NCBI GenBank assembly: GCA_965208105.1
Contig: OZ242318.1
Location: forward strand, 3,328,001 to 3,392,000
DNA from: Candidatus Latescibacterota bacterium
Lineage (GTDB): Bacteria; Latescibacterota; UBA2968; UBA8231
Length of the DNA stretch: 64,000 nucleotides
Direction: 5' to 3'
The number at the start of each line of letters is the position of its first letter. Positions within the stretch are counted from its first letter, which is position 1. Of the stretch, positions 14,481 through 34,130 are shown in pieces. The notes under the pieces were generated by a model. It saw only the letters and a program-made list of their open reading frames with translations. It was not told the DNA's origin and searched no databases. A program made the position numbers and the translations under genes.

Positions 14481-14535
14481 TCTTGAAGATGATGGGGAGG
14501 ATGGGGGCATCTGCCTCTCTCTGGTTGGATTGCGC

Positions 14536-15268: not shown

Positions 15269-15297
15269 TTGAATGGATATATCTAATTAGTTATAGT
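15269..15297 (+). promoter_or_regulatory. Sigma70-like promoter with overlapping palindromic operator for the TA operon
   Basis: TTGAAT-17 nt-TATAGT, ATG 5 nt downstream; near-palindrome TATATCTAATTAGTTATA in the spacer/-10. Confidence 0.6.
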
Positions 15298-15302
15298 CAA
15301 TT

Positions 15303-15689: not shown

Positions 15690-15999
15690 GGTTCGACAGA
15701 GCAGTGGCAACATTTTTGCCGATTTGGGATTTAGTGAAGAGGAAGCGAAAGAAGAGTTGCTCAAAGCCCAACTTGGCGCGGAGATTTTTCGGATTCTCGC
15801 ACACCGCAAGCTCACTCAGACGAAGGCAGCTGAGATTTTAGAAGTTAAGCAGCCAGAAATTTCCCGGCTTAAAAGCGGCAAGTTTTCCTATTACAGCGTC
15901 GAACGGCTGATGCGGTTTCTGGAGCGCCTGAATTGCGAGGTGAGCATTCATATTGCCTGGCCCGAAAGTGAAGGGGCCAAGAAGGTCATAGCGATATAG
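15673..15999 (+). CDS. higA: XRE/HTH_37 antitoxin
   Basis: SSGNIFADLG, LTQTKAAEILEVKQPEISRL HTH. Confidence 0.88.
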   Translation: MTGEIKVRQSSGNIFADLGFSEEEAKEELLKAQLGAEIFRILAHRKLTQTKAAEILEVKQPEISRLKSGKFSYYSVERLMRFLERLNCEVSIHIAWPESEGAKKVIAI

Positions 16000-16038
16000 T
16001 CAGAGTCCCCACCCGACGACGAATCGCAGCGGTGCCGA

Positions 16039-16249
16039 ACATCGCCTACAGCCCGACGCGGAGATCAGCCGTGCCATTGATCTCGACCCACGCCGAAAAA
16101 GGGGTGGACATGATTCTGCACATGCCCACCAGTCCGCAGAATTCCAGCCGCGCTCTACGCAACGACTGGGAATGGTGGAGCGACCACGGCGACGAGATGA
16201 ACGAGCGCTTCAGCACCTGGCTGGCCAGGTGAGGGAAGGCAAGCGGTTC
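16039..16249 (+). repeat. 211-bp direct repeat copy 2 (orphan potD 3' fragment)
   Basis: Encodes IAYSPTRRSAVPLIS...ERFSTWLAR*, matching the potD C-terminus. Confidence 0.95.
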
Positions 16250-16315
16250 AGGGTAGTCGGCTGGAGTGTCGTCTACAAAAGTTGATTCCGGGGTATTTAA
16301 GGAGAGTTCCCAGAA

Positions 16316-18358: not shown

Positions 18359-18564
18359 ATCGATTCTGACGTGGCCAGGCGCATACAAGAAATCCGGTCG
18401 ACAAACGCCGGCGGATTCCCTGGTAATCGCGAATTCGGCTACTCGCGAAGTGGTCTGCAACTGTGCAGGATTGTTAAAGGCAAACAGCTTAATCTGTGAA
18501 TTAGATGCCTTTACGCAGGAGAAAGGCGGAAAAAAGTATAAATGTCAGAGAAAAAGGAGATTTG

Positions 18565-18863: not shown

Positions 18864-20060
18864 GTGATAAACCACGACACCATCATCAAATTACGCGCTG
18901 CGGGTCTGGTCCTGCCGCTGCTGGCTTTCATCGGCCTGACCTTCATCGCGCCGCTGGCGACGATGCTGGTGCGCAGTGTTTACGATCCGGTGGTGGCGGA
19001 GGCGCTCCCCGGGACCCTCGCTCTGCTGCGCCAATGGGACGGGGAGGGGACGCCGGGAGAGGCGGTGTACGAGGCCGCCGCCAGGGAGCTGGTCAAGGCG
19101 AGGGCGGAGCGCACCCTGGGCCAGGTCGCCACCCGCGTCAACCGGGTGCAGGGAGGTCTGCGCAGCGTCCTGACCCGCAGTGCGCGGAAGCTGCAGAAGG
19201 TAAGCGAGGGGCCCTGGCGCGAGGCCATGATCGGGATGGATGCCGCCTGGGCCGAGGGGCAGACCTGGCACGCCATCCGCCGCACCGGAGATCGTTTCAC
19301 CCTGCGGCACTATCTCAACGCCCTCGACCTGCAACGGCTGCCCGACGGCTCCATCGGCGGCCAACCCGAGGAGCGCCGCATCTACCTTTCCCTCCTGTGG
19401 CGCACCTTGCTGGTGAGCCTTGGCATCACCGCCCTGTGCCTGCTGCTGGGATATCCCATCGCCCACCTGATCGCCCACGCCCCGCCCCGGCGCTCCAACC
19501 TTCTCCTCGCCCTGGTGCTGGTCCCGTTCTGGACCTCGCTGCTGGTGCGCACCACCTCCTGGATCGTCCTGCTCCAGAACCAGGGCGTGCTCAACAATGC
19601 CATGGTGGCCCTGGGGCTGATCGGCGACGACGGCCGGCTCGCCATGATCTACAACATGACCGGCACCTTCGTGGCCATGACCCACGTGCTGCTGCCCTTC
19701 ATGGTGCTGCCCCTCTACTCGATCATGCGCGCCATCCCCCCGGTCCAGATGAGCGCCGCCGCCTCCCTGGGAGCGAGTCACCTGCAGGCCTTCGTGCGCG
19801 TCTACTGGCCGCAGACCCTGCCCGGGGTGGGAGCCGGCTCCCTGCTGGTGTTCATCCTCGCCATCGGCTACTACATCACCCCCGCGCTGGTGGGCGGCAG
19901 CCGCGGCCAGCTTATTTCCAACATGATCGCCTACCACATGCAGACCTCGCTCAACTGGGCCCTGGCCGCCGCCCTGGGCGGCCTGCTGCTGGTGTGCGTG
20001 ATGGCCCTGTACTGGCTCTACGACCGCCTGGTGGGGGTCGAAGGCATGAGGCTGGGCTGA
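18864..20060 (+). CDS. potB: Polyamine ABC transporter permease (PotB family)
   Basis: PFWTSLLVRT, LLPFMVLPLYS, AAASLGA (EAA-like loop), GYYITPALVGG. Confidence 0.9.
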   Translation: MINHDTIIKLRAAGLVLPLLAFIGLTFIAPLATMLVRSVYDPVVAEALPGTLALLRQWDGEGTPGEAVYEAAARELVKARAERTLGQVATRVNRVQGGLRSVLTRSARKLQKVSEGPWREAMIGMDAAWAEGQTWHAIRRTGDRFTLRHYLNALDLQRLPDGSIGGQPEERRIYLSLLWRTLLVSLGITALCLLLGYPIAHLIAHAPPRRSNLLLALVLVPFWTSLLVRTTSWIVLLQNQGVLNNAMVALGLIGDDGRLAMIYNMTGTFVAMTHVLLPFMVLPLYSIMRAIPPVQMSAAASLGASHLQAFVRVYWPQTLPGVGAGSLLVFILAIGYYITPALVGGSRGQLISNMIAYHMQTSLNWALAAALGGLLLVCVMALYWLYDRLVGVEGMRLG

Positions 20061-20061
20061 A

Positions 20062-20895
20062 ATGATGGAGCAGGGGCTGGGGCCGCGAATTGGCAGATTC
20101 TGCTACCTGGGGCTGTGCGCCGCGGTTTTCGCCTTCCTGGTCGCGCCGATTCTGGTGATCGTTCCCCTGAGCTTCAACGCCGAGCCCTATTTCACCTTCA
20201 CCGAAGGCATGCTGCGCCTCGATCCGGAGGCCTACTCGCTGCGCTGGTACCGGCAGATCGTCGAGGAGGATGCCTGGACCCGGGCGCTGGCCAACAGCCT
20301 GATCATCGGGGCGGCCTCCACGGCGCTGGCGACCGCGCTGGGCACCCTCGCCTCCCTGGGGCTTTCCAGCGCCGCCATGCCGGCTCGCCGCCTGGCCATG
20401 GGTCTGCTGATCTCGCCGATGGTGACCCCGGTGATCATCTCGGCGGCGGGCATGTTCTTCTTCTACTCCAGCCTGGGTCTGGCCCAGTCGTACTTCGGAC
20501 TGATCCTGGCACACGCCGCCCTGGGCACGCCCTTCGTGGTGATCACGGTAACCGCCACTCTGTCCGCCTTCGATGCCAATCTGACCCGCGCCGCCGCCAG
20601 CCTGGGGGCGGGACCGCTGCGCACCTTCCGCAGCGTGCAGCTGCCGCTGATCGCGCCGGGGGTCGTCTCCGGGGCCCTGTTCGCCTTCGCCACCTCGTTC
20701 GACGAAGTGGTGGTGGTGCTCTTCATGGCCGGGGTGGAGCAGCGCACCATCCCGCGCCAGATGTGGGCGGGCATCCGCGAGCAGATCAGCCCCACCATCC
20801 TGGCCGTGGCGACCTTCCTGATCGTCTTCGCGGTGTTGCTGCTGTTCGTGGTCGAATGGCTGCGCCGGCGGTCGAGTGCGGGTGCGGCCGCTTGA
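20062..20895 (+). CDS. potC: Polyamine ABC transporter permease (PotC family)
   Basis: YSLRWY, RAAASLGA, FATSFDEVVV. Confidence 0.9.
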   Translation: MMEQGLGPRIGRFCYLGLCAAVFAFLVAPILVIVPLSFNAEPYFTFTEGMLRLDPEAYSLRWYRQIVEEDAWTRALANSLIIGAASTALATALGTLASLGLSSAAMPARRLAMGLLISPMVTPVIISAAGMFFFYSSLGLAQSYFGLILAHAALGTPFVVITVTATLSAFDANLTRAAASLGAGPLRTFRSVQLPLIAPGVVSGALFAFATSFDEVVVVLFMAGVEQRTIPRQMWAGIREQISPTILAVATFLIVFAVLLLFVVEWLRRRSSAGAAA

Positions 20896-20934: not shown

Positions 20935-22551
20935 TCAGGCGTCGAGCAGCGTTCTGGCGGCCTGGCGCGCCTCGTCCAGGGTTGCGACGATGCGCTCCGG
21001 CGGAACGTTCCGCAGGATGTCGAGGGTTTGCAGGGTATTCTCCACCGAGCCGGAGAGGCCCATCACGATGCATTCGGTCTTCTCTCCCCTGGCCACCCCA
21101 AGGAGTTGCTCGATGACCATGGCGGCGCTGTCGTCCAGGTAGGAGGCTTCCGAGAAGTCGAAGATGACGGCCTCGTGGTCCTTGATGTCGGCGCCGATCA
21201 CCCCGACCAGCTTGTTGGACGAGGCCACGGTGAGCCGCCCCCTCAGGGCAACGAGACCTACCCGGGCGGCGAAGGGGTCTTCTGCGGCAGCCTCTTTCTT
21301 CTCGGCCAGAAAGGTCTGGTCGAGCATGGGCACGGAGACCACGCTGTCGAGTTCCAGGCCTTCCAACTGGCGGGAGTTGGCCATGCCCGCTGCGATCAGT
21401 CCTATCGCCACGGCGGTTACCAGGTCGACGAACACCGTGAGGCTCAGGGTGATCATCATTACCAGAAGGTGCTCGCGCCGGATGCGGTGGACCCGGGTGA
21501 GAAGGCGCCAGTCAATAATGTCCCAGCCGACCTTCATGAGAATGCCGGCCAGAACCGCATGGGGTATGGGCTCCACAAATCGGCCCAGTCCGAGCAGCAG
21601 CCCCAGCAGAATCAGCGCGCGCATCGCGCCGGAAACCGGGGTCCGCCCGCCGGCGCGGATGTTGACCACGGTGCCCATGGTTGCCCCGGCGCCAGGCAGG
21701 CCCCCGAACAGTCCGGCAACCATGTTGCCGATGCCCTGGCCCACCAGCTCCCGGTTGGGGTTGTGGCGAGTACCGGTGAGGGAGTCGGCTATCAGGGAGG
21801 TCAGGAGGCTGTCTATGGAACCCAGCAGGGCGAGGATGACAGCGGGCTCCAGGGCCCTGGCCAGGAAGCTGGCCGAAGGCAGGGAGAGCTGCAGGCTCGG
21901 CAGGGTGGTCGGAATGGGTCCGATTATCGGTGCGTTGCTCAGCCACAGCACTCCCAGCATGGTGCCGACAACCAGCGCCATCAGAGGAGCGGGAAGGTAT
22001 TTCGAGAAGCGGCGGGGCCAGAGCACTCCCACCGCGAGAGTGACGGCGGCTATGGCGAAGGCACTGGTGTTGATCTGGGCTGCAGCCTCGGGCAGGGCGG
22101 CAATCGCGCCCATAGGTCCGCCCGACGCGGTGGGCGCTCCAAGGAACGGCAGGGCCTGAATCAGCATGATGATGATGCCGATGCCGGACATGAACCCGGA
22201 AATGACCACGTAGGGAGTATAGGCCACAAAGCGGCCGATTCTCAACAACCCGAGGAGGACCTGCAGCAGGCCTCCCAGAACAACCACAGTCAAAGCTTCG
22301 GTGAGGGTGGAGGCGTGGGTGGTGACGATGACTGCCATGGCGACGGTCATCGGACCCGTAGGACCGGAAATCTGGGACCGCGTACCGCCGAACACCGAGG
22401 CGAAAAAGCCCACGGCAATGGCGCCGTACAAGCCTGCGGCGGCCCCCAGACCCGACGCTACTCCGAAGGCCAGGGCCACTGGCAGCGCCACCACGGTGGC
22501 GGTCAGGCCGCCGAAGAGATCCCCCCGCAGGGTATGGAAATCGTATTTCAT
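20935..22551 (-). CDS. SulP/SLC26 family anion transporter with C-terminal STAS
   Basis: LPVALAFG...GLYGAI...ISGPTGP, NRELVGQGIGN, STAS IFDFSEASYLDDSA. Confidence 0.93.
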   Translation of the reverse strand: MKYDFHTLRGDLFGGLTATVVALPVALAFGVASGLGAAAGLYGAIAVGFFASVFGGTRSQISGPTGPMTVAMAVIVTTHASTLTEALTVVVLGGLLQVLLGLLRIGRFVAYTPYVVISGFMSGIGIIIMLIQALPFLGAPTASGGPMGAIAALPEAAAQINTSAFAIAAVTLAVGVLWPRRFSKYLPAPLMALVVGTMLGVLWLSNAPIIGPIPTTLPSLQLSLPSASFLARALEPAVILALLGSIDSLLTSLIADSLTGTRHNPNRELVGQGIGNMVAGLFGGLPGAGATMGTVVNIRAGGRTPVSGAMRALILLGLLLGLGRFVEPIPHAVLAGILMKVGWDIIDWRLLTRVHRIRREHLLVMMITLSLTVFVDLVTAVAIGLIAAGMANSRQLEGLELDSVVSVPMLDQTFLAEKKEAAAEDPFAARVGLVALRGRLTVASSNKLVGVIGADIKDHEAVIFDFSEASYLDDSAAMVIEQLLGVARGEKTECIVMGLSGSVENTLQTLDILRNVPPERIVATLDEARQAARTLLDA

Positions 22552-22810
22552 GGAATGGTCTCCTTACAGTGGCTGGAGCGCGCCGGACCGGAGCAAGGCG
22601 AAGGAATAATTCACCTCCATGATTCAGGCCGGGTATATTCCGGATGAACGGGACCCGGCCGATTCCATCCGGCCAGGCAAATGGGAATTAATGCCACGTT
22701 CTCCGGTGACGCAACAACTTCGCAGCCTTCTCCCTCCGTTGGCGGACTGGAGAGGATGTGCTTGACTCTCAGGTCGTATATGGTATTTTCCAACGAAAAA
22801 GGAATGGACG

Positions 22811-23467
22811 ATGCTGAGGTTCCCTGAAGAGCTCATGCTGCTGATCCTCGACGATGAGAACGGGAAATTCGCCCACGTTCCCGAGCGCCACCTGCGCTAC
22901 GCGATGGCGGGTGGAGTCCTCATGGACCTTGCCCTGGAGAACCGCATCGACACGGACCTGAAGCAGCTTATCCTCGTCGATTCGAGTCCGGTCGGGGACA
23001 GTCTGCTCGACCCGACCCTCGCGGATATTTCTCAGGAAACCGGGAGCCACGATGCGCGCTTCTGGGTGGAGCGCACTGCATTCCAGAGCGCCGACGCGAT
23101 TCGCGAAGAGGCGCTCGACCGGCTGGTGGAGCGCGGAATTCTGAAGCGCCAGGACGACAGGTTTCTGTGGGTCTTCCGGTCTCGGCGGTACCCGGTCATA
23201 GATGACCGGGCAGAACGGGAGGTCAAGCTCAGGATCATGGAAATTCTGTTCAGCGACGAGCTTCCCGACCCGCGCGATGTTGTGATCATCGGGCTGGCGC
23301 ATGCCTGCAACCTGTTCAGGCAGATTCTGTCTGCTCGTGAGTTGGAGCATGTTGCTCCTCGCATCGATCAAGTGCGCCGGCTCGACCTGATCGGCCAGGC
23401 CATGTCCCAGGCCATAACCGATATTGAAGTGTCACTTGCCCTCGCGGTGCAGATGAGGCCATATTAG
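22811..23467 (+). CDS. GPP34/GOLPH3 (Vps74) family protein
   Basis: EELMLLILDDENG, AGGVLMDLALENRI, GDSLLD, LVERGIL...LWVFRSRRYP. Confidence 0.85.
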   Translation: MLRFPEELMLLILDDENGKFAHVPERHLRYAMAGGVLMDLALENRIDTDLKQLILVDSSPVGDSLLDPTLADISQETGSHDARFWVERTAFQSADAIREEALDRLVERGILKRQDDRFLWVFRSRRYPVIDDRAEREVKLRIMEILFSDELPDPRDVVIIGLAHACNLFRQILSARELEHVAPRIDQVRRLDLIGQAMSQAITDIEVSLALAVQMRPY

Positions 23468-23658
23468 CCTTTGCCACAGGACGGGGCTCTGCAGGTTTCG
23501 CGGCGTGCCCCGGGCAGGATCCAGGGCCCGTATTGTTGGTTGGAGGGGTCAGTGGCCGGCAGGCAAGCAGGCGGGGGTGAAACCGCGCTTGCCGTCAGGG
23601 ATTTTCCGGAGAATTGGAATCAGGTCGTCAATCATTCATCAAGGGAGACTTGGGAAAG

Positions 23659-23991
23659 ATGGAAATTAAGGTCGAACGCGAGAACGGCACTCTGATCGCC
23701 CAGGTGGAAGGCCGGGTCGATAGTGCCAATGCCCGCGAATTCGAACAGGTACTCACTGAAGCCATCGGCGATGCCCAGGCCGTGGTCGTCGATTTCGAGG
23801 GTCTTTCCTACATCAGCAGCTCGGGCCTCCGCGTCCTTCTGCTGGTGGCCAAGACCTTGCGGCAGCGGTCGGCCAACCTGGCCCTGTGCGCCCTTTCGGA
23901 GTCGATCCGGGAAGTTTTCGAGATCAGTGGCTTCGACAAGATTATTGAGATTCACGATACCCGCGCCGAGGCCCTGGCAGCACAAGGCTAG
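23659..23991 (+). CDS. rsbV: STAS anti-anti-sigma factor (RsbV/SpoIIAA-like), copy 1
   Basis: GRVDS, DFEGLSYISSSGLRVLL phosphoacceptor motif; 110 aa. Confidence 0.92.
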   Translation: MEIKVERENGTLIAQVEGRVDSANAREFEQVLTEAIGDAQAVVVDFEGLSYISSSGLRVLLLVAKTLRQRSANLALCALSESIREVFEISGFDKIIEIHDTRAEALAAQG

Positions 23992-24259
23992 TGCCCCCGG
24001 CGCAATCCAGGATGCCGCCCGGGACCCCGGGTGAGCCCGAACAGGCGCTTCCTCGAGGATGCAGTGGGAGTGGCCTTCCGCTGATCGAACAGGGGCTGCT
24101 GAATCAGGCGGACATCCGGCGGGGAGGGCGCAGGAAGCTGCCGCCGACCGCTCCCCGAGACCTTTTCATCCCCAGAATCATGTCCCTTATCCTCTTCCCC
24201 TCCGATTACTTCCAGGCCATACAACCCATCTGGCGCCGCAGCGCCCGGAGTTGAACCCA

Positions 24260-25426
24260 ATGGAAACGTCTTACAAGATCCTCGTAGTGGACGACGAACC
24301 CGACCTCGAACATCTCGTGCGGCAGCGCATGCGCCGCGACGTTCGCGCCGGACGCTACTCTTTCACCTTTGCCCACAACGGCGTCGAGGCACTGGAACGG
24401 CTCAACGAGGAGCCGGACATAGACATGGTGCTCACCGACATCAATATGCCCCAGATGGACGGGCTCACCCTGCTCGAGCAGATCCCCAAGGTCGACCCGG
24501 ACATCCGTTCCGTGATCGTCTCGGCATATGGAGACATGAAGAACATCCGCACCGCAATGAACCGCGGCGCCTTCGACTTTGTCACCAAGCCCATAGATTT
24601 CCAGGATCTGCGCGTCACCATCGACCGCACCTTGCACCACCTTACCCTTTGGCGCGAAGCCCTGGCCTCCCGCGACAAGCTGGTGGCGCTGCAGAACGAG
24701 CTGCACGTGGCCAGCCAGATGCAGCAGTCGATTCTGCCCACCAGCTTTCCCGAGCGTCCCGGCTGTCAGGTCTTCGGCAACATGGAGCCCGCCCGCGAGG
24801 TGGGAGGAGACTTCTTCGATGTAATAAGCCTGGAGCACGGCCGTCTCGGGCTGGCTATCGCCGACGTCTCCGACAAGGGTGTTCCCGCGGCGTTGTTCAT
24901 GATGTCAAGCCGCACCCTGCTCAAGGGAGCGGCCATTGGAGACTCGAATCCGGGAACGGTGCTGGCGGAGGCCAACCGGCTGCTTGAGCAGGAAAACGAA
25001 GCCTCCCTGTTCGTCACCATGTTTTACGCAGTGTTCGACCCTGAGAGCGGCGAACTGGTGTACGCCAACGGCGGGCACAATCCACCGTTGATTCTCCACC
25101 CTGACGGCAGTTCGACTCTGCTGCCCTCCACCTCGGGGATCGCCCTGGGATTGCTGCCGGACTTCGACTACGAGCAGGACACCGTCATCCTGTCGGCCGG
25201 CGATATTCTCGTGCTCTACACGGACGGCGTCACCGAGGCCATGAACAGCGACGACGAGGAGTTCGGGCTGGAGCGCCTGCACCAGGTGCTGGCCGAAGCG
25301 CCGCAGGAGGACGCCCGCGCGGCCAATCAGGCTGTTTTCGCCGCAGTGGGGGAGTTCGCCGGGGAAAGGCCGCAGTTCGACGACATCACCTGCGTGACCT
25401 TGCGCTACAGCGGCCAGGGCCAATGA
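24260..25426 (+). CDS. rsbU: Receiver domain plus PP2C (SpoIIE) phosphatase, RsbU/RsbY-like
   Basis: ILVVDDE, LTDINMPQMDG, FVTKP; VGGDFFD, ADVSDKG, YTDGVTEA, FDDIT. Confidence 0.92.
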   Translation: METSYKILVVDDEPDLEHLVRQRMRRDVRAGRYSFTFAHNGVEALERLNEEPDIDMVLTDINMPQMDGLTLLEQIPKVDPDIRSVIVSAYGDMKNIRTAMNRGAFDFVTKPIDFQDLRVTIDRTLHHLTLWREALASRDKLVALQNELHVASQMQQSILPTSFPERPGCQVFGNMEPAREVGGDFFDVISLEHGRLGLAIADVSDKGVPAALFMMSSRTLLKGAAIGDSNPGTVLAEANRLLEQENEASLFVTMFYAVFDPESGELVYANGGHNPPLILHPDGSSTLLPSTSGIALGLLPDFDYEQDTVILSAGDILVLYTDGVTEAMNSDDEEFGLERLHQVLAEAPQEDARAANQAVFAAVGEFAGERPQFDDITCVTLRYSGQGQ

Positions 25427-25845
25427 GCACAAAGAGGTCGCTGCGGATCGCGACGGATCTCGGCGAGCTGGAGCGCATCCAGGCCGCAGTGGAAGAGCTG
25501 GAACAGGAGGCGGGCTGGACGCCCGACTTCGTCTACCAGGTCAACCTCGCTCTCGAGGAGCTGGTCGTAAACGTCATCAACTACGGCCACGGCGGCGACC
25601 CCAATCACGAAATCGAGGTGGTCTTCGACTGGGACGCGGACAGGCTCACCATCGAGATGGTGGACGACGCACCTGCCTTCAATCCCCTGGAAGATGCCCC
25701 CGACCCCGATCTGGCCTCGGAGCTGGAAGAGCGGCACGTGGGCGGCCTGGGAATCTACCTGGTCCACACCCTGATGGACGAGTTGAACTACAGGCGCGAG
25801 CGGGACCGCAATCATCTGACACTGATCAAGCGCGTGAAGGGTTGA
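25423..25845 (+). CDS. rsbW: RsbW-like anti-sigma factor/Ser kinase (HATPase_c_2), copy 1
   Basis: EELVVNVINYG N-box, GGLGIYLV G2 box; ATGA overlap with phosphatase stop. Confidence 0.92.
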   Translation: MSTKRSLRIATDLGELERIQAAVEELEQEAGWTPDFVYQVNLALEELVVNVINYGHGGDPNHEIEVVFDWDADRLTIEMVDDAPAFNPLEDAPDPDLASELEERHVGGLGIYLVHTLMDELNYRRERDRNHLTLIKRVKG

Positions 25846-25930
25846 GCAAGGGGTTCACCTTGCCCATCTCTCCTCTTCCGCACCCTCGTTGAAGAGTCTG
25901 GCAGCCCATTGAGAAAGTCCATCCGGGCTG

Positions 25931-27673
25931 CTAGGAGGCGCTCTCGATCCGCACCGCAATTATATCCATGTCGTTGTACTTCTGGTGGCGCACCGAAGAG
26001 GCGTAGTGCCGCAGCAGGCGGAACGAAATCTCGCGTTCGTCCACGAGCTCGGGCTGTTCGCTGAGATAGGCCAGCCGGTCCTCGACGTTCTCTCCCGCGG
26101 AAGAGGCGAGGAACTCCAGCTCCGCGGCGCCTTCGGCCACACGCGCATTGAGGATCAGCCGGCCTCCCCCGGCACCATCCTCGCCCCCATTCTGTTGTAC
26201 CAGGATTGCCAGCGTCTCTTCTCCCGCGGCGCGCAGACGTTCGGTCGAGGCTTCGTTCCAGCCTATTTTCGCGGAGAACCTCTGGAGGAAGCTGTCGATC
26301 TCAGGCAGGGAACGGTCGGCCAGCTCGACCTCCAGCCGCCGCTTCCGCGCTCCCGTCCACTCCAGGAACGCGGTCAGCAGGATCGCGGCCAGACCCCCGG
26401 CGGTCATGCCGTTGCCGAGCAGGTTGCCCCAGGTACTGCCCAGCAGGTCGGCGAAGATCACCTGGTTCTGAAAGCCCACACCGATCCAGAAGGACAGACC
26501 CGCGATGGCGGCCTTGCGGTGATCGAGCCCGCTTTCGACGACCAGCTTCATTCCCTGTACGAAGAGCAGAGCGATGAGGAGGGTGACATAGGCCGCGCCT
26601 ACGGGATTGGGAATGGCGATCAGGAGGGCCGTAACCTTGGGAGACAGGGCCAGGAGTATGAAAATGATGCCGATGTAGACCCCGACGCGGCGTGCGGCGA
26701 CCCCGGTCAGCTCTGCTAGGGAAATGCTGGTGGAGTAGGTGGTGTTGGGCGGGGTCCCCGCGAGCCCGGAGAGCAGGTTGCCCATGCCGTCGGCGTTCAG
26801 GGCACCCTGGACCAGGCGAAAATCAGTTGCCCTCCGCTGCCGCCTCGAGACCCTTTGAATTGCGACGCCGTCGCCGATGGTTTCAATGGCGCCCACCAGG
26901 GTCACGACAATGAATGCCGGCAGAAGGGCCCAGAACTCCGCACCCAGGGAAAGGTCCAATCCGGGCCAGGAACTGTCGGGGAGTCCGATCCAGGGGGCCT
27001 GGATCACTGGCTGAAGGTCGAATAGTCCGAAGGGGGCGGCCACGGCGCATCCCGCCGCGATGCCGATGAGCGGCGCCCACAGCCGCCAGGTTACCGGTGC
27101 CCGCAGCGTAAGGACCACGAGGACGGCGAGGGTCGCTCCCGAGGCGGCGGGGGCCGCCTCGACGGGGGTGCCGGCGGGAACCTCGGTCAGCAGGCCGAAG
27201 ATGACCGGCATTACGGTGACCGCGATCAGCATGATCACCGTTCCGGAGACCACCGGAGTGATGATTCGGCGCAGCAGCGAAAGGCGCGCGGCCAGAGCGA
27301 ACTGAACCAGGGAAGAAGCTACTATCAGGGTCGCCATCAGAGACGGCCCACCCTTCACCAGAGCAGCGATGCAGACCGCAATGAAAGCGCCTGAAGTGCC
27401 CATGATGAGCACGTGCCCGGCCCCGATGCGGCCGACCCGGACCGCCTGCAGGACAGTGCTGACTCCACTGATCATCAGCGCTGCGAAGGCCACCCAGGTC
27501 AGGTAGCTCTGGGGCTGTTCGGCGGCCCTGGCGATGATGACCGCGCTGAGCACCACCGGCGCCAAGACGACGACCGCCGCCTGAAATCCGGCCCCTGCGG
27601 CTACCGAGTGGGGTGGCCGCTCCTCTGGCTCGAAGCGGATGTTTCCGGTTCCCTGCGCAGTTTCCAAGGCCAT
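25931..27673 (-). CDS. NCS2 (uracil/xanthine permease family) protein with C-terminal degenerate RsbW-like domain
   Basis: SGVSTVLQ, TPVVSGTVIMLI, ETIGD, ADGMGNLLSG, LTGVAAR; ~137-aa soluble tail aligning by eye to the neighbouring RsbW proteins. Confidence 0.88.
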   Translation of the reverse strand: MALETAQGTGNIRFEPEERPPHSVAAGAGFQAAVVVLAPVVLSAVIIARAAEQPQSYLTWVAFAALMISGVSTVLQAVRVGRIGAGHVLIMGTSGAFIAVCIAALVKGGPSLMATLIVASSLVQFALAARLSLLRRIITPVVSGTVIMLIAVTVMPVIFGLLTEVPAGTPVEAAPAASGATLAVLVVLTLRAPVTWRLWAPLIGIAAGCAVAAPFGLFDLQPVIQAPWIGLPDSSWPGLDLSLGAEFWALLPAFIVVTLVGAIETIGDGVAIQRVSRRQRRATDFRLVQGALNADGMGNLLSGLAGTPPNTTYSTSISLAELTGVAARRVGVYIGIIFILLALSPKVTALLIAIPNPVGAAYVTLLIALLFVQGMKLVVESGLDHRKAAIAGLSFWIGVGFQNQVIFADLLGSTWGNLLGNGMTAGGLAAILLTAFLEWTGARKRRLEVELADRSLPEIDSFLQRFSAKIGWNEASTERLRAAGEETLAILVQQNGGEDGAGGGRLILNARVAEGAAELEFLASSAGENVEDRLAYLSEQPELVDEREISFRLLRHYASSVRHQKYNDMDIIAVRIESAS

Positions 27674-27795
27674 CTCCCTGATTCAGGTTGAACAAATCGC
27701 CAGAAAGGCCGCTGCCGGGTGCTGCAAGCCGGGGAAGGAACCCCGGCAACCTGGCCGCGGACCACCTCTTTCCAGCCGATTTGAGACAGGATCTT

Positions 27796-28569
27796 TCAAA
27801 GGCGCCATACCAGCAGCAACTGGGCCGTGCTCTCGTCCTGGTCCGTGCCGAGCTTGTTGAGCCAATACTGGTATTCCACTCCCACCATGAACTGATGGGG
27901 AACTCCGGCTACGGCCCTGCCGAGATCCCAGGTGATTTGCGGCTGAGCGAGAACCGACCCTTTGAGGTCCTCGTTCAGCTCGTTGGTGCGACCGCCCAGG
28001 TACTCGGCATGGCCGACGACGGCCAGAGACTGATCCCCGATCCCGAAGGGGAGGGCCCAGTTGAGGTCGATCATGAAGCTGTTGTCGGCCTTGGGGGCGC
28101 CGCCACCCGCCAGGCCGATGTTGTCGTCCATGTAGGCGGTAAGGTCCGTGTTCAGAAACAGGAATCCCGGGATGTCCCAGGATACCCTCAGGCCCGGAAG
28201 GTACTTCAGGACTTTGGCCGCACCGCCCACGTTGACTCCGCCTATGATGGAAAAGTCAGCAACGGGGCCGAGGCTCAACTGCTCGTTGGACAGCTTGCCG
28301 AGACTCAAGGTTGGATACCACTCGGCGTAGAAGTCCCTCTCGTTGAAGCCGTCCTCCCCGCCGTCATTGAGGTAATCCAGAAAGAAGAAGCTGTCACCCA
28401 ACTTCCATCCCGAAGCCTGTTGCATGGTGAATACGAAGGTCCGATCCTGGGTTGCCGAGAATGGATTTTTCAGTTTGCCGTACTGCAGGTGGAACTCCGT
28501 TTGAGCTGGAATTGCGGTCCGGGTCACCAGGACCGCAGCCATCAGAAATCCGGCGTATGCTGTTTTCAT
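27796..28569 (-). CDS. Tsx/OmpK-like (nucleoside-binding) outer membrane channel
   Basis: Signal peptide, SGWKLGDSFFFLD, YAEWYPTLSLGK, GVEYQYWLNKLG, amphipathic terminal strand. Confidence 0.8.
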   Translation of the reverse strand: MKTAYAGFLMAAVLVTRTAIPAQTEFHLQYGKLKNPFSATQDRTFVFTMQQASGWKLGDSFFFLDYLNDGGEDGFNERDFYAEWYPTLSLGKLSNEQLSLGPVADFSIIGGVNVGGAAKVLKYLPGLRVSWDIPGFLFLNTDLTAYMDDNIGLAGGGAPKADNSFMIDLNWALPFGIGDQSLAVVGHAEYLGGRTNELNEDLKGSVLAQPQITWDLGRAVAGVPHQFMVGVEYQYWLNKLGTDQDESTAQLLLVWRL

Positions 28570-28790
28570 TGCCAGGCCTTCACCCTTTCATTGATGACGC
28601 ACAGGCTGGAGTTCAGGACAGATAAACGACCTTGCCCCGGGGCGGGTCAAGAAATTTTTTGGTGCTTTTTTCACGGTGGAGGGATGGTGCAGGCAGTATT
28701 ACTTGACCCCGGTGCATGGAAGACGCCATATTAATTGAATCGGATTGAATTATATCGGCAATAACCTACAACCCACGAGACTCTGGAACT

Positions 28791-29123
28791 ATGGAAATCA
28801 ATGTCGAACGTGAGGACGGAACCATGATCGCCGTGGTGAAAGGCCGGGTCGACAGCGCAAACGCCCGGGAATTCGAGCAAGTGCTCACCGAAGCCATCGG
28901 CGATGACCACAACGTAGTTATCGATTTCGCGGGGCTTGCCTACATCAGCAGTTCGGGTCTGCGCGTCCTTCTGATGGTGGCCAAGTCGCTGCGGCAGCGG
29001 TCGGCGCACCTTGCGCTGTGCTCCCTTTCGACGGCGATCCGGGAGGTTTTCGAGATCAGTGGCTTCGACAAGATCATTCCGATTCACGACACTCGCGCCG
29101 AAGCCGTTGCCGCGCTCGGCTGA
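28791..29123 (+). CDS. rsbV: STAS anti-anti-sigma factor, copy 2
   Basis: Close paralog of 23659-23991; YISSSGLRVLL. Confidence 0.92.
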   Translation: MEINVEREDGTMIAVVKGRVDSANAREFEQVLTEAIGDDHNVVIDFAGLAYISSSGLRVLLMVAKSLRQRSAHLALCSLSTAIREVFEISGFDKIIPIHDTRAEAVAALG

Positions 29124-29193
29124 GGCTGGGCTTCGCGCGCCTTGCTGGGTCCTGCCCCTCCCGCCTCATGCCGGGGTGCCGCAGGTGTGAGCC

Positions 29194-29616
29194 ATGAACA
29201 TTAACCGCTTACTGCGCATAGCGACTGACCTGGGTGAGTTGAAGCGGATTCACGCCCTGGTGGAGGATGTGGGGAAGGAAGCCTCCTGGTCCCCCAGTTT
29301 CATCTACCAGGTCAACCTCGTCCTCGAGGAGTTGGCCGTCAATGTCATCAACTACGGGCACGGCGGCGACCCCAATCACGAGATCGAGATCGTCCTGGAC
29401 TGGGACGATGACCAGCTCACCATCGAGATGGTGGACGATGCCCCCGTCTTCGATCCCCTGAAAGACGCCCCCGATCCCGACCTGACCTCGGCGCTCAAGG
29501 ACCGGCCCATTGGCGGCCTGGGGGTTTATCTGGTTTATACCTTCATGGATGAGTTGAGCTACCGCCACGAGGAGGGCCGCAACCATCTCACATTGGTCAA
29601 GCGGAGGAAGGGATGA
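29194..29616 (+). CDS. rsbW: RsbW-like anti-sigma factor/Ser kinase, copy 2
   Basis: Close paralog of 25423-25845; EELAVNVINYG, GGLGVYLV. Confidence 0.92.
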   Translation: MNINRLLRIATDLGELKRIHALVEDVGKEASWSPSFIYQVNLVLEELAVNVINYGHGGDPNHEIEIVLDWDDDQLTIEMVDDAPVFDPLKDAPDPDLTSALKDRPIGGLGVYLVYTFMDELSYRHEEGRNHLTLVKRRKG

Positions 29617-30776
29617 GGGCGGCGGCCGCCTCACTCGCAGTTTTTACTGCGGTTGTGGCGATTGACGCCGAAGAAACGGGGGTCTCCCACCAGCGCATCC
29701 TCTTTGGCCAGTCGGCGGCATTCAGTGGCCCCGCCCAGGAGCTGGGCAAGAATATGCGGCGCGGTATCCAGGCCGCGTTTGCGGAAGCCAACCGGCAGGG
29801 CGGCGTGCATGGCCGGCAGTTGGAGTTGCAGTCTCTCGACGACGCCTACGAACCCGAGGCCGCCATCGCCAACACCCGCCAACTTATCGAGCAGGAAGGG
29901 GTGTTCGCGCTCATCGGCGCAGTCGGCACCCCCACCTCGCGCTCGGCCACTCCTGTAGCCGCCGCCGCCGCCGTTCCCTACATCGCTCCTTTCACCGGCG
30001 CCGCTTTCCTGCGCCAGCCGATGTGGTCCAACGTGATCAACCTGCGGGCCTCCTACAACCAGGAGACCGAGGCCATGGTCGCGCGCCTGACAGCGGACCT
30101 GGGCATCGAGCGCATCGCGGTGATGTATCAGGACGACTCCTTCGGACGGGCTGGCTACCGCGGGGCGCGCCAGGCGCTCGAGCGCCGAGGCATGGAGCCG
30201 GTGGCCATAGGCGTGTACCCGCGCAATACCACGGCGGTGAAGACCGCCCTGCTCGACTTGCGCAGCGCAGATCCGGGCGCCGTCATCCTGGTGGGGGCGT
30301 ACCAGCCTGTGGCGGCCCTTATCGCCTGGGCCCGGCACACCGGCTGGGACCCGGTCTTCATAACCATCTCCTTCGTGGGCAGCAATGCCCTGGCCCGGGA
30401 GCTGGGCCGCGGCGGCACCGGTGTCTTCGTCACCCAGGTTGTTCCCTTTCCCGCCAACGACATCCCTCCGGTGGTCGCCGCCTACCGCCGCGCCCTGGCC
30501 GCCCATGCGCCTGAAGCCGCGCCCGGCTTCGTATCCCTGGAAGGCTACCTGGCAGGCCGATTGGCCATTGCCGCCCTCGAACGCTGCGGTCCCGAGGTTG
30601 ACCGGGCTCGCTTCCTGGAGAGTCTGCGCCGCGACGGTCTCATCGACCTTGGGGGCTTCGAGCTGAGCTACGGGGAAGCAGACAACCAGGGATCGGATGC
30701 CGTCTTCCTGACCGCGATCGGCAGCGACGGCACCTATTTCCCGATCGATACCCTGCGCGAGGCGAAAATGCCATGA
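29613..30776 (+). CDS. Type I periplasmic ligand-binding protein (LivJ-like fold), no adjacent permease
   Basis: GQSAAFSGP, GGVHGR, LDDAYEP, VGTPTS, LRASY; overlaps both neighbours. Confidence 0.88.
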   Translation: MRAAAASLAVFTAVVAIDAEETGVSHQRILFGQSAAFSGPAQELGKNMRRGIQAAFAEANRQGGVHGRQLELQSLDDAYEPEAAIANTRQLIEQEGVFALIGAVGTPTSRSATPVAAAAAVPYIAPFTGAAFLRQPMWSNVINLRASYNQETEAMVARLTADLGIERIAVMYQDDSFGRAGYRGARQALERRGMEPVAIGVYPRNTTAVKTALLDLRSADPGAVILVGAYQPVAALIAWARHTGWDPVFITISFVGSNALARELGRGGTGVFVTQVVPFPANDIPPVVAAYRRALAAHAPEAAPGFVSLEGYLAGRLAIAALERCGPEVDRARFLESLRRDGLIDLGGFELSYGEADNQGSDAVFLTAIGSDGTYFPIDTLREAKMP

Positions 30777-32986
30777 CCGGCCTGCTCAAACGCCTGCTCA
30801 AGGGCCGTTTCCGCATCTCGGCGCAGCTCTATTTCGGCATCGGCGGCGCCGTCGCCCTTACCATGGGGGCGAGTCTGGTCGGCTGGTTCGCTTTCAACAA
30901 GGTGGGCGACTCCCAGCGTCTGGTAAACGAGGACAGCCTTCCGGAGATGGCGGCCGCCTTCGCCGTCGCCCAGCAAAGCGGCACTCTGACGGCCGCCGCT
31001 CCTCGCCTGACGGCCGCGGCCACTCCCGAGGATTTCGCCAGGGTGGCCGCCGGGATCGCCGCGGAGCGGGAGGCCTTCGAGACCCGCCTGGAGGAGCTGA
31101 CCCGGCAGGGAGGGGAGGATGAGCGCTTCGTGCGCATTCGCGCCCACGGAGACTCGCTGATCGCCAACATCGCCGCCATCGACAGCTCGGTGGCCGAGCG
31201 CTTCGCCCTGGCCGCCCGCAGCGAGGCGCTCCGCGCCGAATTGGCCGCGGTTCGCGGCGGGTTGGTGGGGATTCTGGTCCCCGCCATTGACGATCAGCTA
31301 TTCTATGCCATGACCGGCTACCGGAACCTCGGTGAAGCCCCCGTTTCCCGCGCTCGCCATTTCTCGGAGGTGGAGTTCGACCGCTATCGTCACCTGGCCG
31401 AGCTGCAGGCGGACGCCACCATCGCCATCCAGCTTCTCGCCAGCGCCTTCAACCTGTCTGACGCCGCCCTGATCGAGCCTCTGCGGGAGCGCTTCGAGGC
31501 CGCAGCCGGCAGGATCGAGCGCCGCCGGTCGGTCTTCGGAGCTACCCCTTCGCAGGACCGCATCGCCGGGGCTTTCGAACGCTTGTTCCGCCTGGGGTTG
31601 GGCGAGCAGAGCGGCTTCAATTTGCGCGCCAGCGAGCTCGGGCTCGCGGAGCAGCAAAGGGGGCTGCTCGGCCGCAACCGCAGCCTTGCCATCGACCTCG
31701 TCGCCGAGGTGGAGGGTCTGGTGAGCGAGGCCCGCACGAGCGCCGAGGAAGCCTCCCAGGCCTCCACCGAGGCGATCCTCACGGGACGCCGTCTGCTCCT
31801 TGCCCTCAACGTGGTCAGCATCGTGGGGGCCCTGCTGATCGCCTACCTGTTCGTAGGCCGGGTCCTCCTGCGCCGCCTGGAGCGGTTGTCCGACCGCATG
31901 CGCGGGATGGCCGGAGGTGATCTGGAGACCAGGGTCGATATCGGCGGCCACGACGAGGTCGCCGACATGGCTTCGGCGCTCGAGGTCTTCCGTCGCCACG
32001 CTCTCGAGGTCCAGCGCCTGAACCTAGTGGAGAAGCTGGCCGAAGAGCTGAAGGACAAGAACAGCCAGCTCGAAAGCGTGCTGGCGGACTTGCGCCGCGC
32101 CCAGGACCAGATCGTGATGCGCGAGAAACTGGCCGCCCTCGGCGAGCTCACCGCCGGCGTGGCTCACGAAATCAAGAACCCGCTGAACTTCGTGAAGAAC
32201 TTCTCGGAGGTATCGGTGGAGCTGTTGGAGGAGATGCAGGAAGTCCTGCGCGAGGATGAAGTTCAGCTGGGCGATGAGCAGCGCGAGGTGGTCGAAGAGA
32301 TCTGCGGCGACCTCAGTGCCAACCTGGGACGCATTTGTCAGCACGGCGAGCGCGCCAACGGAATCGTGCACGATATGCTGTCCATGGGCAGGGGCGGGGG
32401 AGAGCGCCAGCTGACCGACATCAACCGGCTACTCGACGAGCATGCACGGCTCGCTTACCACAGCGCGCGGGCGACCGATCCCAATTTCAACCTGACCATC
32501 GATGAGAATCTCGATCCGGGGGCAGGACAGATAGAGATCGTGCCCCAGGACCTTGGCCGCGTCTTCCTCAACATGGTGAGCAACGCCTGCCACGCCACCG
32601 ACGAAAGGCGCCGCGCCGGGAAAGATGGAGAGAAATACGAACCAACCCTGTCCATGGCCACCCGCCGCCTGGACGAGAGCATCGAGGTGCGGATCAGGGA
32701 CAACGGCAGCGGGATCCCGCCGGATGTCATCGATAAAATTTTCAACCCCTTCTTCACCACCAAGCCGACCGATCAGGGAACGGGGCTCGGTCTGGCGCTG
32801 TCCAACGATATCGTGCGCCAGCACGGGGGCACCATCCGGGTCGAGTCCGAACCCGGCGAGTTCACCGAAATGATTGTCGACCTGCCTCTTTCCCCTCCAT
32901 CCGAGGCGCTGGCCGATGGAGAAGGAGAGCCGGAGGGGGCGTCCCTGGGCGAGCCGCTGGGAGAGGGAAGAGAGCAGCCGGCGTAG
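30773..32986 (+). CDS. Sensor histidine kinase with TorS-like helical periplasmic domain and HAMP
   Basis: Two TM helices, long helical periplasmic region, HAMP (GGHDEVADM), AHEIKNPLNF H-box, NACHA, DNGSGI, FNPFFTTK, GTGLGL. Confidence 0.9.
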   Translation: MTGLLKRLLKGRFRISAQLYFGIGGAVALTMGASLVGWFAFNKVGDSQRLVNEDSLPEMAAAFAVAQQSGTLTAAAPRLTAAATPEDFARVAAGIAAEREAFETRLEELTRQGGEDERFVRIRAHGDSLIANIAAIDSSVAERFALAARSEALRAELAAVRGGLVGILVPAIDDQLFYAMTGYRNLGEAPVSRARHFSEVEFDRYRHLAELQADATIAIQLLASAFNLSDAALIEPLRERFEAAAGRIERRRSVFGATPSQDRIAGAFERLFRLGLGEQSGFNLRASELGLAEQQRGLLGRNRSLAIDLVAEVEGLVSEARTSAEEASQASTEAILTGRRLLLALNVVSIVGALLIAYLFVGRVLLRRLERLSDRMRGMAGGDLETRVDIGGHDEVADMASALEVFRRHALEVQRLNLVEKLAEELKDKNSQLESVLADLRRAQDQIVMREKLAALGELTAGVAHEIKNPLNFVKNFSEVSVELLEEMQEVLREDEVQLGDEQREVVEEICGDLSANLGRICQHGERANGIVHDMLSMGRGGGERQLTDINRLLDEHARLAYHSARATDPNFNLTIDENLDPGAGQIEIVPQDLGRVFLNMVSNACHATDERRRAGKDGEKYEPTLSMATRRLDESIEVRIRDNGSGIPPDVIDKIFNPFFTTKPTDQGTGLGLALSNDIVRQHGGTIRVESEPGEFTEMIVDLPLSPPSEALADGEGEPEGASLGEPLGEGREQPA

Positions 32987-33060
32987 ATTCCCTTTGCTCC
33001 TTCTCCACACTCCCCATGAAACAATCGCGGTCGAAAATGTTGATGAAAGGAAGCTGACAG

Positions 33061-33945
33061 GTGGCAAGCCCGATGGAGTCCTCGTTGGCGCTGCTCGCTT
33101 CCGAGGAGGTGTTCCCGATCCCGGACCGGATGAGCAGGAGGAAATGGGATGGTCCGTGGTGGCACATGGCCACTCTCTGCGAGATGGGTGAATCCAACAG
33201 GATCCCCCGGTCGGCTGCCGAAGGGGCCCTGGAACTGCTCAAGCACGGGGCCTGGCCGCGGTTCGTTCTCACCGAGGAAGAGGCTCCCGGGAGCGAGGCG
33301 GACAGGGCGAAGATGGACTGCTGCCACTGCGAGCTGGGTGTGTTCTACATGATACTCTCCGCGTGTGGGTTCGAGGTCGACGTGGAGCTTCCCTGGATCC
33401 GGGCGTGGTTCCTGGAGCACCAGCTTCCGGACGGTGGACTGAATTGTGAACCCTCGGCCTATGGCGGGTCGCGCAAAAGTTCCGTCGTGTCGACACTGCC
33501 TCCGCTGGAAGCCGTGCTCTTTTTCACGAGGCGGGAGTATACGGCTGCCGAGGCCGAATTCCTCGACGAGGGCGCGCGCTACCTGATCGAACATCGCCTG
33601 GTCTGCTCGAAGAAAGACGGTGCTGTCATCAACGGGGAATGGCTGAAACCCTTCTTCCCGCGGTTCTTCGAGTACGATATTTTGCGAGGGATGTACTTTC
33701 TCGTGGAGTGGTCGAGGCGAAGAAGGAAAGTCCTTCCCGGAGATTTGATTGAAGAAGGTCTTCACCGGATTGGAGGCTATACGGGGAAATCAGGGGTCGT
33801 CATCGGCAGGCACGTGAACGACGAGAGCGGCGGCTGGTACGGAAGTTCTTTTCCGCTGCTGCAATCGGTGAGTCAAGTGGGCAAGGAGTCTCCCTACCTG
33901 ACAAGGCAACTGGACGCGGTAGTAGCAGCCGCGCAAACAGGCTAG
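33061..33945 (+). CDS. Hypothetical alpha/alpha-barrel (prenyltransferase/squalene cyclase-like) protein
   Basis: WFLEHQLPDGGLNC QW-like repeat, GARYLIEHRL, FEYDILRG. Confidence 0.65.
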   Translation: MASPMESSLALLASEEVFPIPDRMSRRKWDGPWWHMATLCEMGESNRIPRSAAEGALELLKHGAWPRFVLTEEEAPGSEADRAKMDCCHCELGVFYMILSACGFEVDVELPWIRAWFLEHQLPDGGLNCEPSAYGGSRKSSVVSTLPPLEAVLFFTRREYTAAEAEFLDEGARYLIEHRLVCSKKDGAVINGEWLKPFFPRFFEYDILRGMYFLVEWSRRRRKVLPGDLIEEGLHRIGGYTGKSGVVIGRHVNDESGGWYGSSFPLLQSVSQVGKESPYLTRQLDAVVAAAQTG

Positions 33946-34130
33946 CCTCCCGCCGCGGTTTTTTGACGCACCAGGGGGGATCACTCTTCTTCCGTTGAAT
34001 AGAAGGAGGCGGAGAATGTTTCCATGTAGCGTCCGGATCTCCCTCTGCACAGGTCCGATCCAGCGGTCTGCATGGGGCCATCCCGCCCTCACCGGTAGCG
34101 ATAATTACCCATCTTGATAGGAGAACAGCC

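Follow-up and report, generated by a model that had tools for sequence, protein, structure and literature searches.

What does a partner switch act upon when no sigma factor travels with it? Partner switching is the textbook route to freeing a sigma factor, and a locus in which the switch proteins stand among transporter genes instead invites the question. The locus occupies positions 20935 to 32986 of a 64,000-nt stretch of DNA from Candidatus Latescibacterota bacterium (GCA_965208105.1, contig OZ242318.1, positions 3,328,001–3,392,000, forward strand). We call this whole stretch the window, and coordinates are window positions unless marked genome. Eleven genes lie in these 12 kb. They encode two RsbV and two RsbW proteins, a receiver-fused phosphatase (REC-PP2C), a periplasmic binding protein, a histidine kinase, a SulP-family transporter, a GPP34-family protein, a Tsx-like channel, and an NCS2-fold permease with a C-terminal tail that the original prediction termed a pseudo-RsbW. 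That prediction saw in the eleven a single signalling system, running from ligand to kinase to phosphatase to RsbV, and ending at the permease tail.

The targets of a growing number of sigma-less partner switches are mostly unknown, according to the accessible part of PMC8256260. This locus supplies a concrete and cheaply testable candidate: a permease tail predicted to fold like the kinase of the switch itself, its gene lying between those of kinase and STAS partner. The explanation that we find best, and to which we would give not quite an even chance, is a sigma-less switch of five genes whose unphosphorylated RsbV regulates transporters, namely the tailed permeases and ammonium transporters (Amt) of the marine subtype. 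The periplasmic binding protein would report a ligand, presumably nitrogen-related, to the TorS-like histidine kinase, and the kinase would phosphorylate the receiver of REC-PP2C. REC-PP2C would then set the phosphorylation state of RsbV, with RsbW as the opposing serine kinase, and unphosphorylated RsbV would serve as a diffusible transporter regulator by docking on NCS2-fold permeases at their tail, an RsbW-like domain without ATP motifs. The system would also reach the marine-subtype Amt, by way of either RsbV or RsbW, and its output would not be a sigma factor. Gene content, fold, conservation and linkage were observed directly; we infer every phosphotransfer and binding step, those of the signalling chain from family knowledge and co-conservation, and that at the output from fold, linkage and a model.

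The eleven genes and the cassette within them

Open reading frame (ORF) listing and Pfam placed all eleven genes where they had been predicted. On the plus strand the switch opens with RsbV1 (23659..23991), a single-domain STAS protein of the anti-sigma-factor-antagonist type (Pfam STAS, 80 bits); its longest ORF opens at 23614, and its relatives begin at the ATG at 23659. REC-PP2C follows (24260..25426, +), a receiver (Response_reg, 88 bits) fused to a SpoIIE-type serine phosphatase (SpoIIE, 192 bits). Its longest ORF spans 24059–25426, and because relatives align only from about residue 68, the true start is probably 24260. The start of RsbW1 (25423..25845, +), an anti-sigma-type serine kinase (HATPase_c_2, 98 bits), overlaps the stop of REC-PP2C by 4 bp. 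Two genes on the minus strand come next: the 580-aa NCS2-fold permease with its pseudo-RsbW domain (25931..27673; Xan_ur_permease, residues 28–401) and, upstream of it and co-directional, the Tsx-like outer-membrane channel (27796..28569). The latter is a borderline assignment (Channel_Tsx 27.7 bits against a cut-off of 27.2); NCBIfam gave no match to the gene, and its orthologue in locus L101 had no Channel_Tsx match at E 0.001. The plus strand then resumes with RsbV2 (28791..29123; STAS 84 bits; TIGR00377, anti-sigma factor antagonist, 83 bits against a cut-off of 53) and RsbW2 (29194..29616; HATPase_c_2, 89 bits). With 82% identity between the two RsbVs and 72% between the two RsbWs, the pairs are evidently duplicates. 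The stop of RsbW2 overlaps by 4 bp the start of the binding-protein gene (29613..30776, +; Peripla_BP_6, 207 bits), a type-I solute-binding protein and the presumed ligand sensor, and this gene in turn overlaps that of the membrane histidine kinase (30773..32986, +). To the left of the switch lie a BicA-like SulP anion transporter with a C-terminal STAS domain (20935..22551, −; Sulfate_transp 274 bits, STAS 36 bits; NCBIfam BicA 510 bits, below the cut-off of 880) and, divergent from it, the GPP34-family gene (22811..23467, +; GPP34, 163 bits).

The claim that the block holds no sigma factor or DNA-binding regulator was borne out. No such family was matched by the scanned ORFs of the whole 64-kb window, and because gene-to-gene gaps in the eleven-gene block are only 70–270 bp, no regulator gene is hidden between the eleven.

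The kinase comprises TorS_sensor (PF21689, 38.9 bits), HAMP, HisKA (38 bits) and HATPase_c (85 bits) domains. Pfam finds neither a REC nor an HPt domain in it; it is not a hybrid kinase, and, as originally claimed, the sole receiver of the locus is on the phosphatase. The kinase H-box and the acceptor-Asp motif of the REC-PP2C receiver are both visible in the translations. In Escherichia coli TorT–TorS, a periplasmic binding protein works with a TorS-type kinase, and here too the binding-protein gene adjoins that of a kinase with a TorS-type sensor. The likeness to TorS is confined to that sensor domain, however: the TorS model TIGR02956 matches in part (167 bits against a cut-off of 676.5), the binding protein is of the Peripla_BP_6 family, and the response regulator is a phosphatase rather than a transcription factor. 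In NCBIfam the binding protein matches only a model for branched-chain amino-acid binding proteins, and there its 60 bits fall short of the cut-off of 477.

Residues Y51, S53, S54, G56, L57 and R58 of RsbV are invariant among 34 relatives, S53/S54 being the conserved phosphorylatable serine by which STAS proteins of partner switches are recognized, and the N-box and G2 box are conserved among 77 cassette RsbWs. The G1 box departs from the DdG consensus of the 77 relatives in both window copies of RsbW, which have DDA. Nowhere else in the 4.85-Mb genome is there a strong HATPase_c_2 gene, a single-domain STAS gene or a SpoIIE-type phosphatase gene: this locus holds them all, two, two and one respectively.

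The genome collection has more than 590 stretches with a REC-PP2C relative at 60–85% identity; the counts that follow rest on the best 80 loci, some of which are cut by contig ends. By ORF clustering, REC-PP2C is present in 80 of these, RsbW in 79, the binding protein in 75, and RsbV and the kinase in 74 each, usually with one copy apiece and in the order RsbV, REC-PP2C, RsbW, binding protein, kinase. The remaining genes are rare companions: GPP34 in eight loci, SulP and NCS2 in three each, and Tsx in one. The full eleven-gene order was found in one locus of the 80 (L017, from the same genus) and part of it in another (L018). The synteny check therefore does not sustain the idea of eleven genes co-conserved as one unit, since what recurs is the five-gene cassette. 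The record labels of the 80 loci span at least six phyla (Latescibacterota, Chloroflexota/Dehalococcoidia, Gemmatimonadota, Acidobacteriota, Acidimicrobiales, Alpha- and Gammaproteobacteria). Because REC-PP2C is 60–85% identical across these labels, the sequences would mark the cassette as horizontally spread, a mobile, habitat-linked trait of uncultured bacteria.

Judged from gene order, the window holds a common cassette that appears to have received an insertion between the RsbW and binding-protein genes, consisting of the inverted Tsx–NCS2 pair and the second RsbV–RsbW pair. Might the whole then be a mosaic with no joint function, in which cassette and transporter genes were juxtaposed by chance in a rearranged region? 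The scarcity of full synteny (one locus, and part of it in one more) would suit such an account, as would an apparent low-GC defence island 3 kb upstream and an estimated contamination of 8% in the genome. We consider it very improbable, all the same. Contigs from a different study's run, 95–99% identical, bridge both the Tsx/RsbV2 and the RsbW2/binding-protein junctions, so the arrangement is not an assembly artefact of this genome alone, and the cassette is tied to tailed permeases or to Amt in many separate arrangements and phyla.

The predicted chain from binding protein through kinase and REC-PP2C to RsbV, for its part, fits both the co-conservation of its genes (74–80 of 80 loci) and the overlaps of stop and start codons, found where REC-PP2C meets RsbW1 and where the binding-protein gene meets RsbW2 on one side and the kinase gene on the other. 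From the same co-conservation, we infer that kinase and receiver are cognate.

Sigma factors and kindred switches

The 80 cassette loci, together with 79 loci encoding tailed permeases that are described below, were searched with 15 sigma proteins of this genome. None of the 80 has an alternative sigma gene beside the cassette. Strong sigma matches beside it occurred in two loci (L061 and L067), both from one gammaproteobacterial lineage; the candidate in L061, the one of the two that was inspected, was dismissed as a 633-aa housekeeping RpoD. Weak ECF-like matches lie several kb off the cassette in L064, L095, L096 and L159. The genome itself has sixteen matches to sigma-70 region 2, ten of which were classified, five as short RpoD/RpoS-like factors and five as ECF-like; no sigma factor of the genome reached the cut-off of the SigB/F/G model TIGR02980 (best 126 bits against 234). 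The description of the locus as sigma-less withstood both searches: no alternative sigma factor travels with the cassette, and a remote, atypical target is possible. The five RpoD/RpoS-like factors are only 281–301 aa long (loci L001, L004, L005, L006 and L007), and there is no long RpoD among the sixteen. One of the five, L007, is separated from the switch by about 52 kb and has an Amt–GlnK pair 4 kb away.

A remote target is the substance of one rival explanation: that this is a canonical partner switch in which RsbW holds an alternative sigma factor encoded elsewhere and RsbV frees it, the transporters being members of the regulon or simply neighbours, and the permease tail a dimerization or stability domain, as STAS is in SulP. 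The RsbWs, present in 79 of the 80 loci, have intact N, G1 and G2 boxes, and the five short RpoD/RpoS-like factors, with about ten of the ECF type, provide potential clients. There is precedent, too: in Bacillus cereus a histidine kinase, RsbK, phosphorylates a REC-PP2C, RsbY, that acts on RsbV/RsbW and so controls SigB, as the accessible part of PMC9912610 describes it. Nevertheless we think this explanation unlikely, given that no alternative sigma gene was found in any of the 80 loci, that the two sigma-adjacent matches belong to a single lineage, with the one in L061 a 633-aa RpoD, and that the best SigB/F/G score falls below its cut-off. The part of the explanation that concerns the tail is taken up below.

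How much of this system is already familiar? Kinase-driven REC-PP2C switches are known (PMC9912610, accessible part), as are sigma-less switches with STAS outputs, such as SypA and RbaV (PMC8256260, likewise). The locus resembles the B. cereus pathway in its progression from kinase to REC-PP2C to an RsbV/RsbW pair. It differs in that SigB is encoded in the same cluster there, whereas here no sigma factor is linked, the sensor is periplasmic and TorS-like, and there are a dedicated binding protein and transporter neighbours (comparison limited to the available portion of PMC9912610). In Vibrio fischeri SypE/SypA and in Rhodobacter capsulatus RbaV, the STAS protein carries the output when it is unphosphorylated, and, as here, no sigma target is known, so far as the accessible part of PMC8256260 goes. 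Their targets are given there as unknown, or as biofilm or gene-transfer functions, whereas in the window the candidate receptor is a permease-fused pseudo-RsbW and the input a separate kinase and binding protein. Pseudomonas RssB, with the RssC and HsbR/HsbA switches (PMC6482189, in its accessible part), shares the receiver–PP2C architecture and a STAS partner. These systems act on RpoS or FlgM, however, and the REC-PP2C of the window is not an RssB orthologue, because its best NCBIfam match, to RssB (NF045505), scores 124 bits against a cut-off of 700.

The RsbW-like tail of the permease

The tail comprises about residues 440–580 of the permease and is encoded at 25931–26371. Searched against Pfam it had no match even at E = 10, and hence no HATPase_c_2 membership by sequence; BLASTP found no similarity to RsbW1 (E = 1.4), and NCBIfam has no annotation of the domain. 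Because Pfam and BLASTP gave nothing, the tail's identity comes only from a search by fold. Relatives are plentiful—2047 database proteins at E ≤0.001, among 6816 scored candidates of 319–1015 aa—and an alignment of 20 of them, A1, was folded by AlphaFold (pLDDT 75.8, pTM 0.74). The 13 best Foldseek matches of this model in the PDB are all UsfX, SpoIIAB or RsbW chains, with E-values of 8e-7 to 1e-5 and TM-scores, by target, of 0.70–0.82. The N-box Asn and the GGLG of the G2 box are absent; in their place, by our by-eye reading of the tail and RsbW alignments, A1 shows EETL-A-I-L and E-I-S-F. Because the modelled fold matches anti-sigma kinases and the ATP motifs appear to have been replaced, the name 'pseudo-RsbW' seems a fair one. 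The permease domain scores 164.6 bits against Xan_ur_permease, above the cut-off of 27, and below the cut-offs of the models TIGR00801 (189.9 against 291.8) and pbuX (208 against 414). The Protein Atlas clusters nearest the tail are unnamed, with HATPase_c_2 on 15% of the members of one and Xan_ur_permease on 19% of those of another; at scores of 0.90–0.93 they are a lead only.

Does RsbV dock on this tail? The two were modelled together from A1 and an alignment of 34 sequences for RsbV2 (A2), in three runs with three controls. The complex scored 0.83 in all three runs and the best control 0.00; contacts agreed to at least 98%, and the partner pLDDT was at least 92. Of 157 solved complexes, 116 attain such a mark, as do 2 of 215 mismatched pairs; these rates are rough, since own alignments were used here. 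In the model, S53/S54, L57 and R58 of RsbV lie against the invariant tail residues E51, E52, S116, L119, R121 and H122, and 15 of the 24 residues at the tail interface are at least 90% conserved, compared with about 47% of all tail positions—a mild enrichment by our own count. With two glutamates modelled as facing the phospho-serine, binding would be sensitive to phosphorylation. The model supports the docking of RsbV on the tail, as originally predicted, without demonstrating binding: the backing is in silico, from the fold and from 0.83 against 0.00, and the pass may reflect resemblance to solved RsbV–RsbW complexes.

Whether the tail could be just a dimerization or stability domain, as the remote-sigma explanation would have it, is a reasonable question, since anti-sigma kinases of the same fold are dimers according to PDB entry titles, and a dimerizing tail is accordingly plausible. 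Dimerization by itself, however, would not need invariant E51, E52, S116, L119, R121 and H122, the very residues modelled as facing the phospho-serine loop of RsbV.

If RsbV does regulate tailed permeases, as we favour, genes for the two should keep company. An alignment-based profile scan yielded 79 tail loci (a single-sequence scan had given just seven). Directly upstream of the permease there is a Tsx-like gene in 20 of these, and GPP34 occurs in 13 and SulP in 10. Seven distinct loci hold a second type of cassette, in which REC-PP2C (54–60% identical), binding protein, kinase, Tsx and tailed NCS2 genes follow one another on one strand with short gaps, without RsbV or RsbW. Five genomes with this second type encode a single RsbW–RsbV pair 4–28 kb away, and in four of them a marine-type Amt follows the pair, forming an RsbW–RsbV–Amt operon (one Amt match is partial). 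The partial match (L219:7405-8826; G167:C1:3406335-3407378) covers model positions 1–344 of 404; the long ORF there has no Pfam match, and the gene may be truncated or frameshifted. Other arrangements occur as well. In two loci labelled Opitutales, the cassette lies about 5 kb from ABC permeases, which are followed by the tailed NCS2 gene; homologues (58–65% identity) of the window's own ABC permeases (18864..20895) are directly upstream of tailed NCS2 in these two loci, L154 and L164. In one Dehalococcoidia locus, the tailed permease is convergent with the cassette.

About nine further loci have Tsx–NCS2 beside both GPP34 and SulP, with the cassette absent, and because of these SulP and GPP34 appear to belong with the permease and not with the switch. 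We found no evidence that SulP–STAS is connected to the switch, SulP occurring in three of the 80 cassette loci and travelling with Tsx–NCS2 instead. The divergent pair of GPP34 and BicA-like SulP–STAS genes (window 20935–23467; L151, L152, L155, L162, L169, L171, L172 and L178) puts carriers with a STAS domain and carriers with an RsbW fold side by side.

At the level of whole genomes, tail and cassette also coincide. Among 168 genomes of the phylum, 70 have both, 2 the tail only, 6 the cassette only and 90 neither. In a Dehalococcoidia sample of 201 genomes the corresponding numbers are 31, 2, 2 and 166, three weak REC-PP2C matches (41–45% identity) being omitted from these counts. Of five genomes of other phyla that hold the cassette, four encode one to six tailed permeases.

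Ammonium transporters and other neighbours

The original prediction was right about the genes of the locus, and overlooked one that is linked to it just past its end coordinate of 32986: an Amt gene (34131..35516, +; Pfam 325 bits) of the marine subtype (TIGR03644, 515.6 bits against a cut-off of 514). Between kinase and Amt is an ORF of 294 aa (33061..33945, +) with no family in Pfam or NCBIfam, kept only in the same-genus locus L017.

Counting any paralogue, 38 of the 80 loci have an Amt-family gene in the 10-kb flanks of the cassette, and in 16 no more than 400 bp separate it from a cassette gene; in six more, Amt is separated from the cassette by a GlnK gene alone. The arrangements vary: kinase–Amt, Amt–RsbV, Amt–GlnK–RsbV, and others. 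Across the phylum's 168 genomes, TIGR03644 scores fall into two groups, one at 507–533 bits and one at no more than 457, and the marine-subtype clade so delimited occurs in 72 of the 76 genomes with REC-PP2C (one match partial), and in one genome without the cassette. Where Amt and REC-PP2C share a contig (67 genomes), they are within 10 kb of each other in 58 and within 25 kb in 66. The genomes in these counts are related and not independent, yet the distances fall into several classes. The marine-subtype Amt is thus the steadiest transporter partner of the cassette.

Amt channels have a precedent for this kind of company. In AmtB–GlnK, a small soluble signalling protein encoded beside the ammonium channel gates the channel. 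Small signalling proteins are likewise encoded near the ammonium channel here, with the difference that the window Amt lacks a GlnK neighbour and is accompanied by RsbV and RsbW. Of the four Amt genes in this genome, two others are paired with GlnK. The linked Amt clade ends in a conserved acidic extension, with a consensus of about YPEFVLMPEE-D-E (window 35390–35516; loci L019–L089), past the point where the C-terminal region of an Amt usually stops; no such extension occurs in the Amts linked to GlnK, whether from this genome or from the loci compared. The extension is a candidate docking site for a regulator.

Such observations suggest another rival explanation, partly compatible with ours: that this is a nitrogen or ammonium module, the true target of which is the marine-type Amt, or a set of ATP-grasp, Alpha-E and transglutaminase enzymes, or both, and that the NCS2–Tsx insertion in this genus is a lineage-specific accident without significance for regulation. 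A triad of circularly permuted ATP-grasp, Alpha-E and transglutaminase-like genes follows the cassette in 24–26 of the 80 loci, at times with a marine-type Amt embedded (L043:15099-19024, L088:16219-20180, L215:8572-13368 and L026:16183-18684 are examples); it is not in the window, and we found no paper tying Amt to it. A nitrogen module is favoured by the more general linkage to Amt (38 of the 80 loci, with NCS2 in 3; 66 of 67 genomes at up to 25 kb), by the RsbW–RsbV–Amt operons and by the clade's own YPEFVLMPEE extension. Left unexplained by it are the seven operons of REC-PP2C, binding protein, kinase, Tsx and tailed NCS2, the RsbW-like fold of the tail, and the modelled interface between tail and RsbV, and on balance we consider it quite unlikely as a full account.

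Several points weigh against the regulation of transporters by RsbV that we favour. REC-PP2C is present in only 10 of the 79 tailed-permease loci, and one of the five cassette genomes from other phyla has no tail match. The co-occurrence of tail and cassette is confounded, both traits being restricted to the same 10–11 of 49 genera, and a shared habitat or gene pool could yield it without any functional link. This genome has two further tailed permeases far from the switch, in ordinary metabolic or polyketide contexts: one (L134:8744-18958; genome 4067744-4077958) beside an alpha/beta hydrolase, a phosphopantetheinyl transferase and a 2129-aa ORF, the other (L135:8943-10703) among aromatic-catabolism genes. 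RsbW retains all of its kinase motifs, conserved as they are in systems that hold a sigma factor, and the five short RpoD/RpoS-like factors are possible targets for it. The complex model may pass through likeness to, or memory of, solved RsbV–RsbW and SpoIIAA–SpoIIAB structures. Lastly, because a canonical Amt–GlnK pair adjoins the cassette in six loci, RsbV need not replace GlnK. What stands of the prediction that partner switching acts on transport rather than on a sigma factor is carried by the lack of a linked sigma gene, by the fold and model of the tail, and by linkage to Amt and tailed permeases; the eleven-gene unit has fallen away.

A bolder version can be put forward, which we regard as on the doubtful side. 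It holds that a family of NCS2-fold permeases captured a dead anti-sigma-kinase domain as a docking site, that phosphorylation-gated RsbV would gate the tailed permeases and the marine-type Amt directly and post-translationally, and that the module was passed horizontally among at least seven phyla sharing a habitat. There is a parallel in the SLC26/SulP–STAS carriers, as the available part of PMC8256260 presents them: a carrier of the 7+7-TM type bears a cytoplasmic partner-switching domain, and one such carrier is in this same locus. The NCS2-fold permease, unlike SulP, carries the opposite partner, the anti-sigma-kinase fold. If RsbV binds the tail, a second class of carriers would come under a partner-switching domain, mirroring SulP–STAS, and the mechanism would reach beyond transcription to control uptake directly. 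That a GlnK-less marine-type Amt is so tightly linked suggests, similarly, PII-free gating of ammonium channels. New here is the combination: a fixed input of binding protein and TorS-like kinase, transporter neighbours in place of a sigma factor, and a permease family with a dead copy of the switch kinase. A literature search, the coverage of which excluded most subscription journals, found no paper joining partner switching to Amt, NCS2 or other permeases.

Contigs from RNA libraries (two libraries of one study, 95–99% alike) match short parts of GPP34, RsbV1, REC-PP2C, RsbW1, NCS2, RsbW2, the binding protein, the kinase, the 294-aa ORF and Amt (window 22400–35150). They stem from relatives, may include DNA carry-over and cannot show operons, and we do not count them as evidence of transcription; nor is anything to be read from stretches of the locus that no RNA contig covers.

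Upstream of the switch are two ABC-transporter permease genes (BPD_transp_1; 18864..20895, +), loose neighbours that are possibly part of the transport context. Before them comes a stretch of lower GC (6000–18400; 53–58%, compared with 60–69% elsewhere) that looks like a defence island. In it are an XhoI-like restriction enzyme and an N6/N4 methylase (11292–13054), a T5orf172 gene (14536–15111), a Gp49-like gene (15303–15689) and a PLD-nuclease/NTPase (16316–18358). The island splits a single ABC transporter, leaving the ATPase (5270–6391) and the solute-binding protein (13153–14463) apart from the permeases at 18864–20895.

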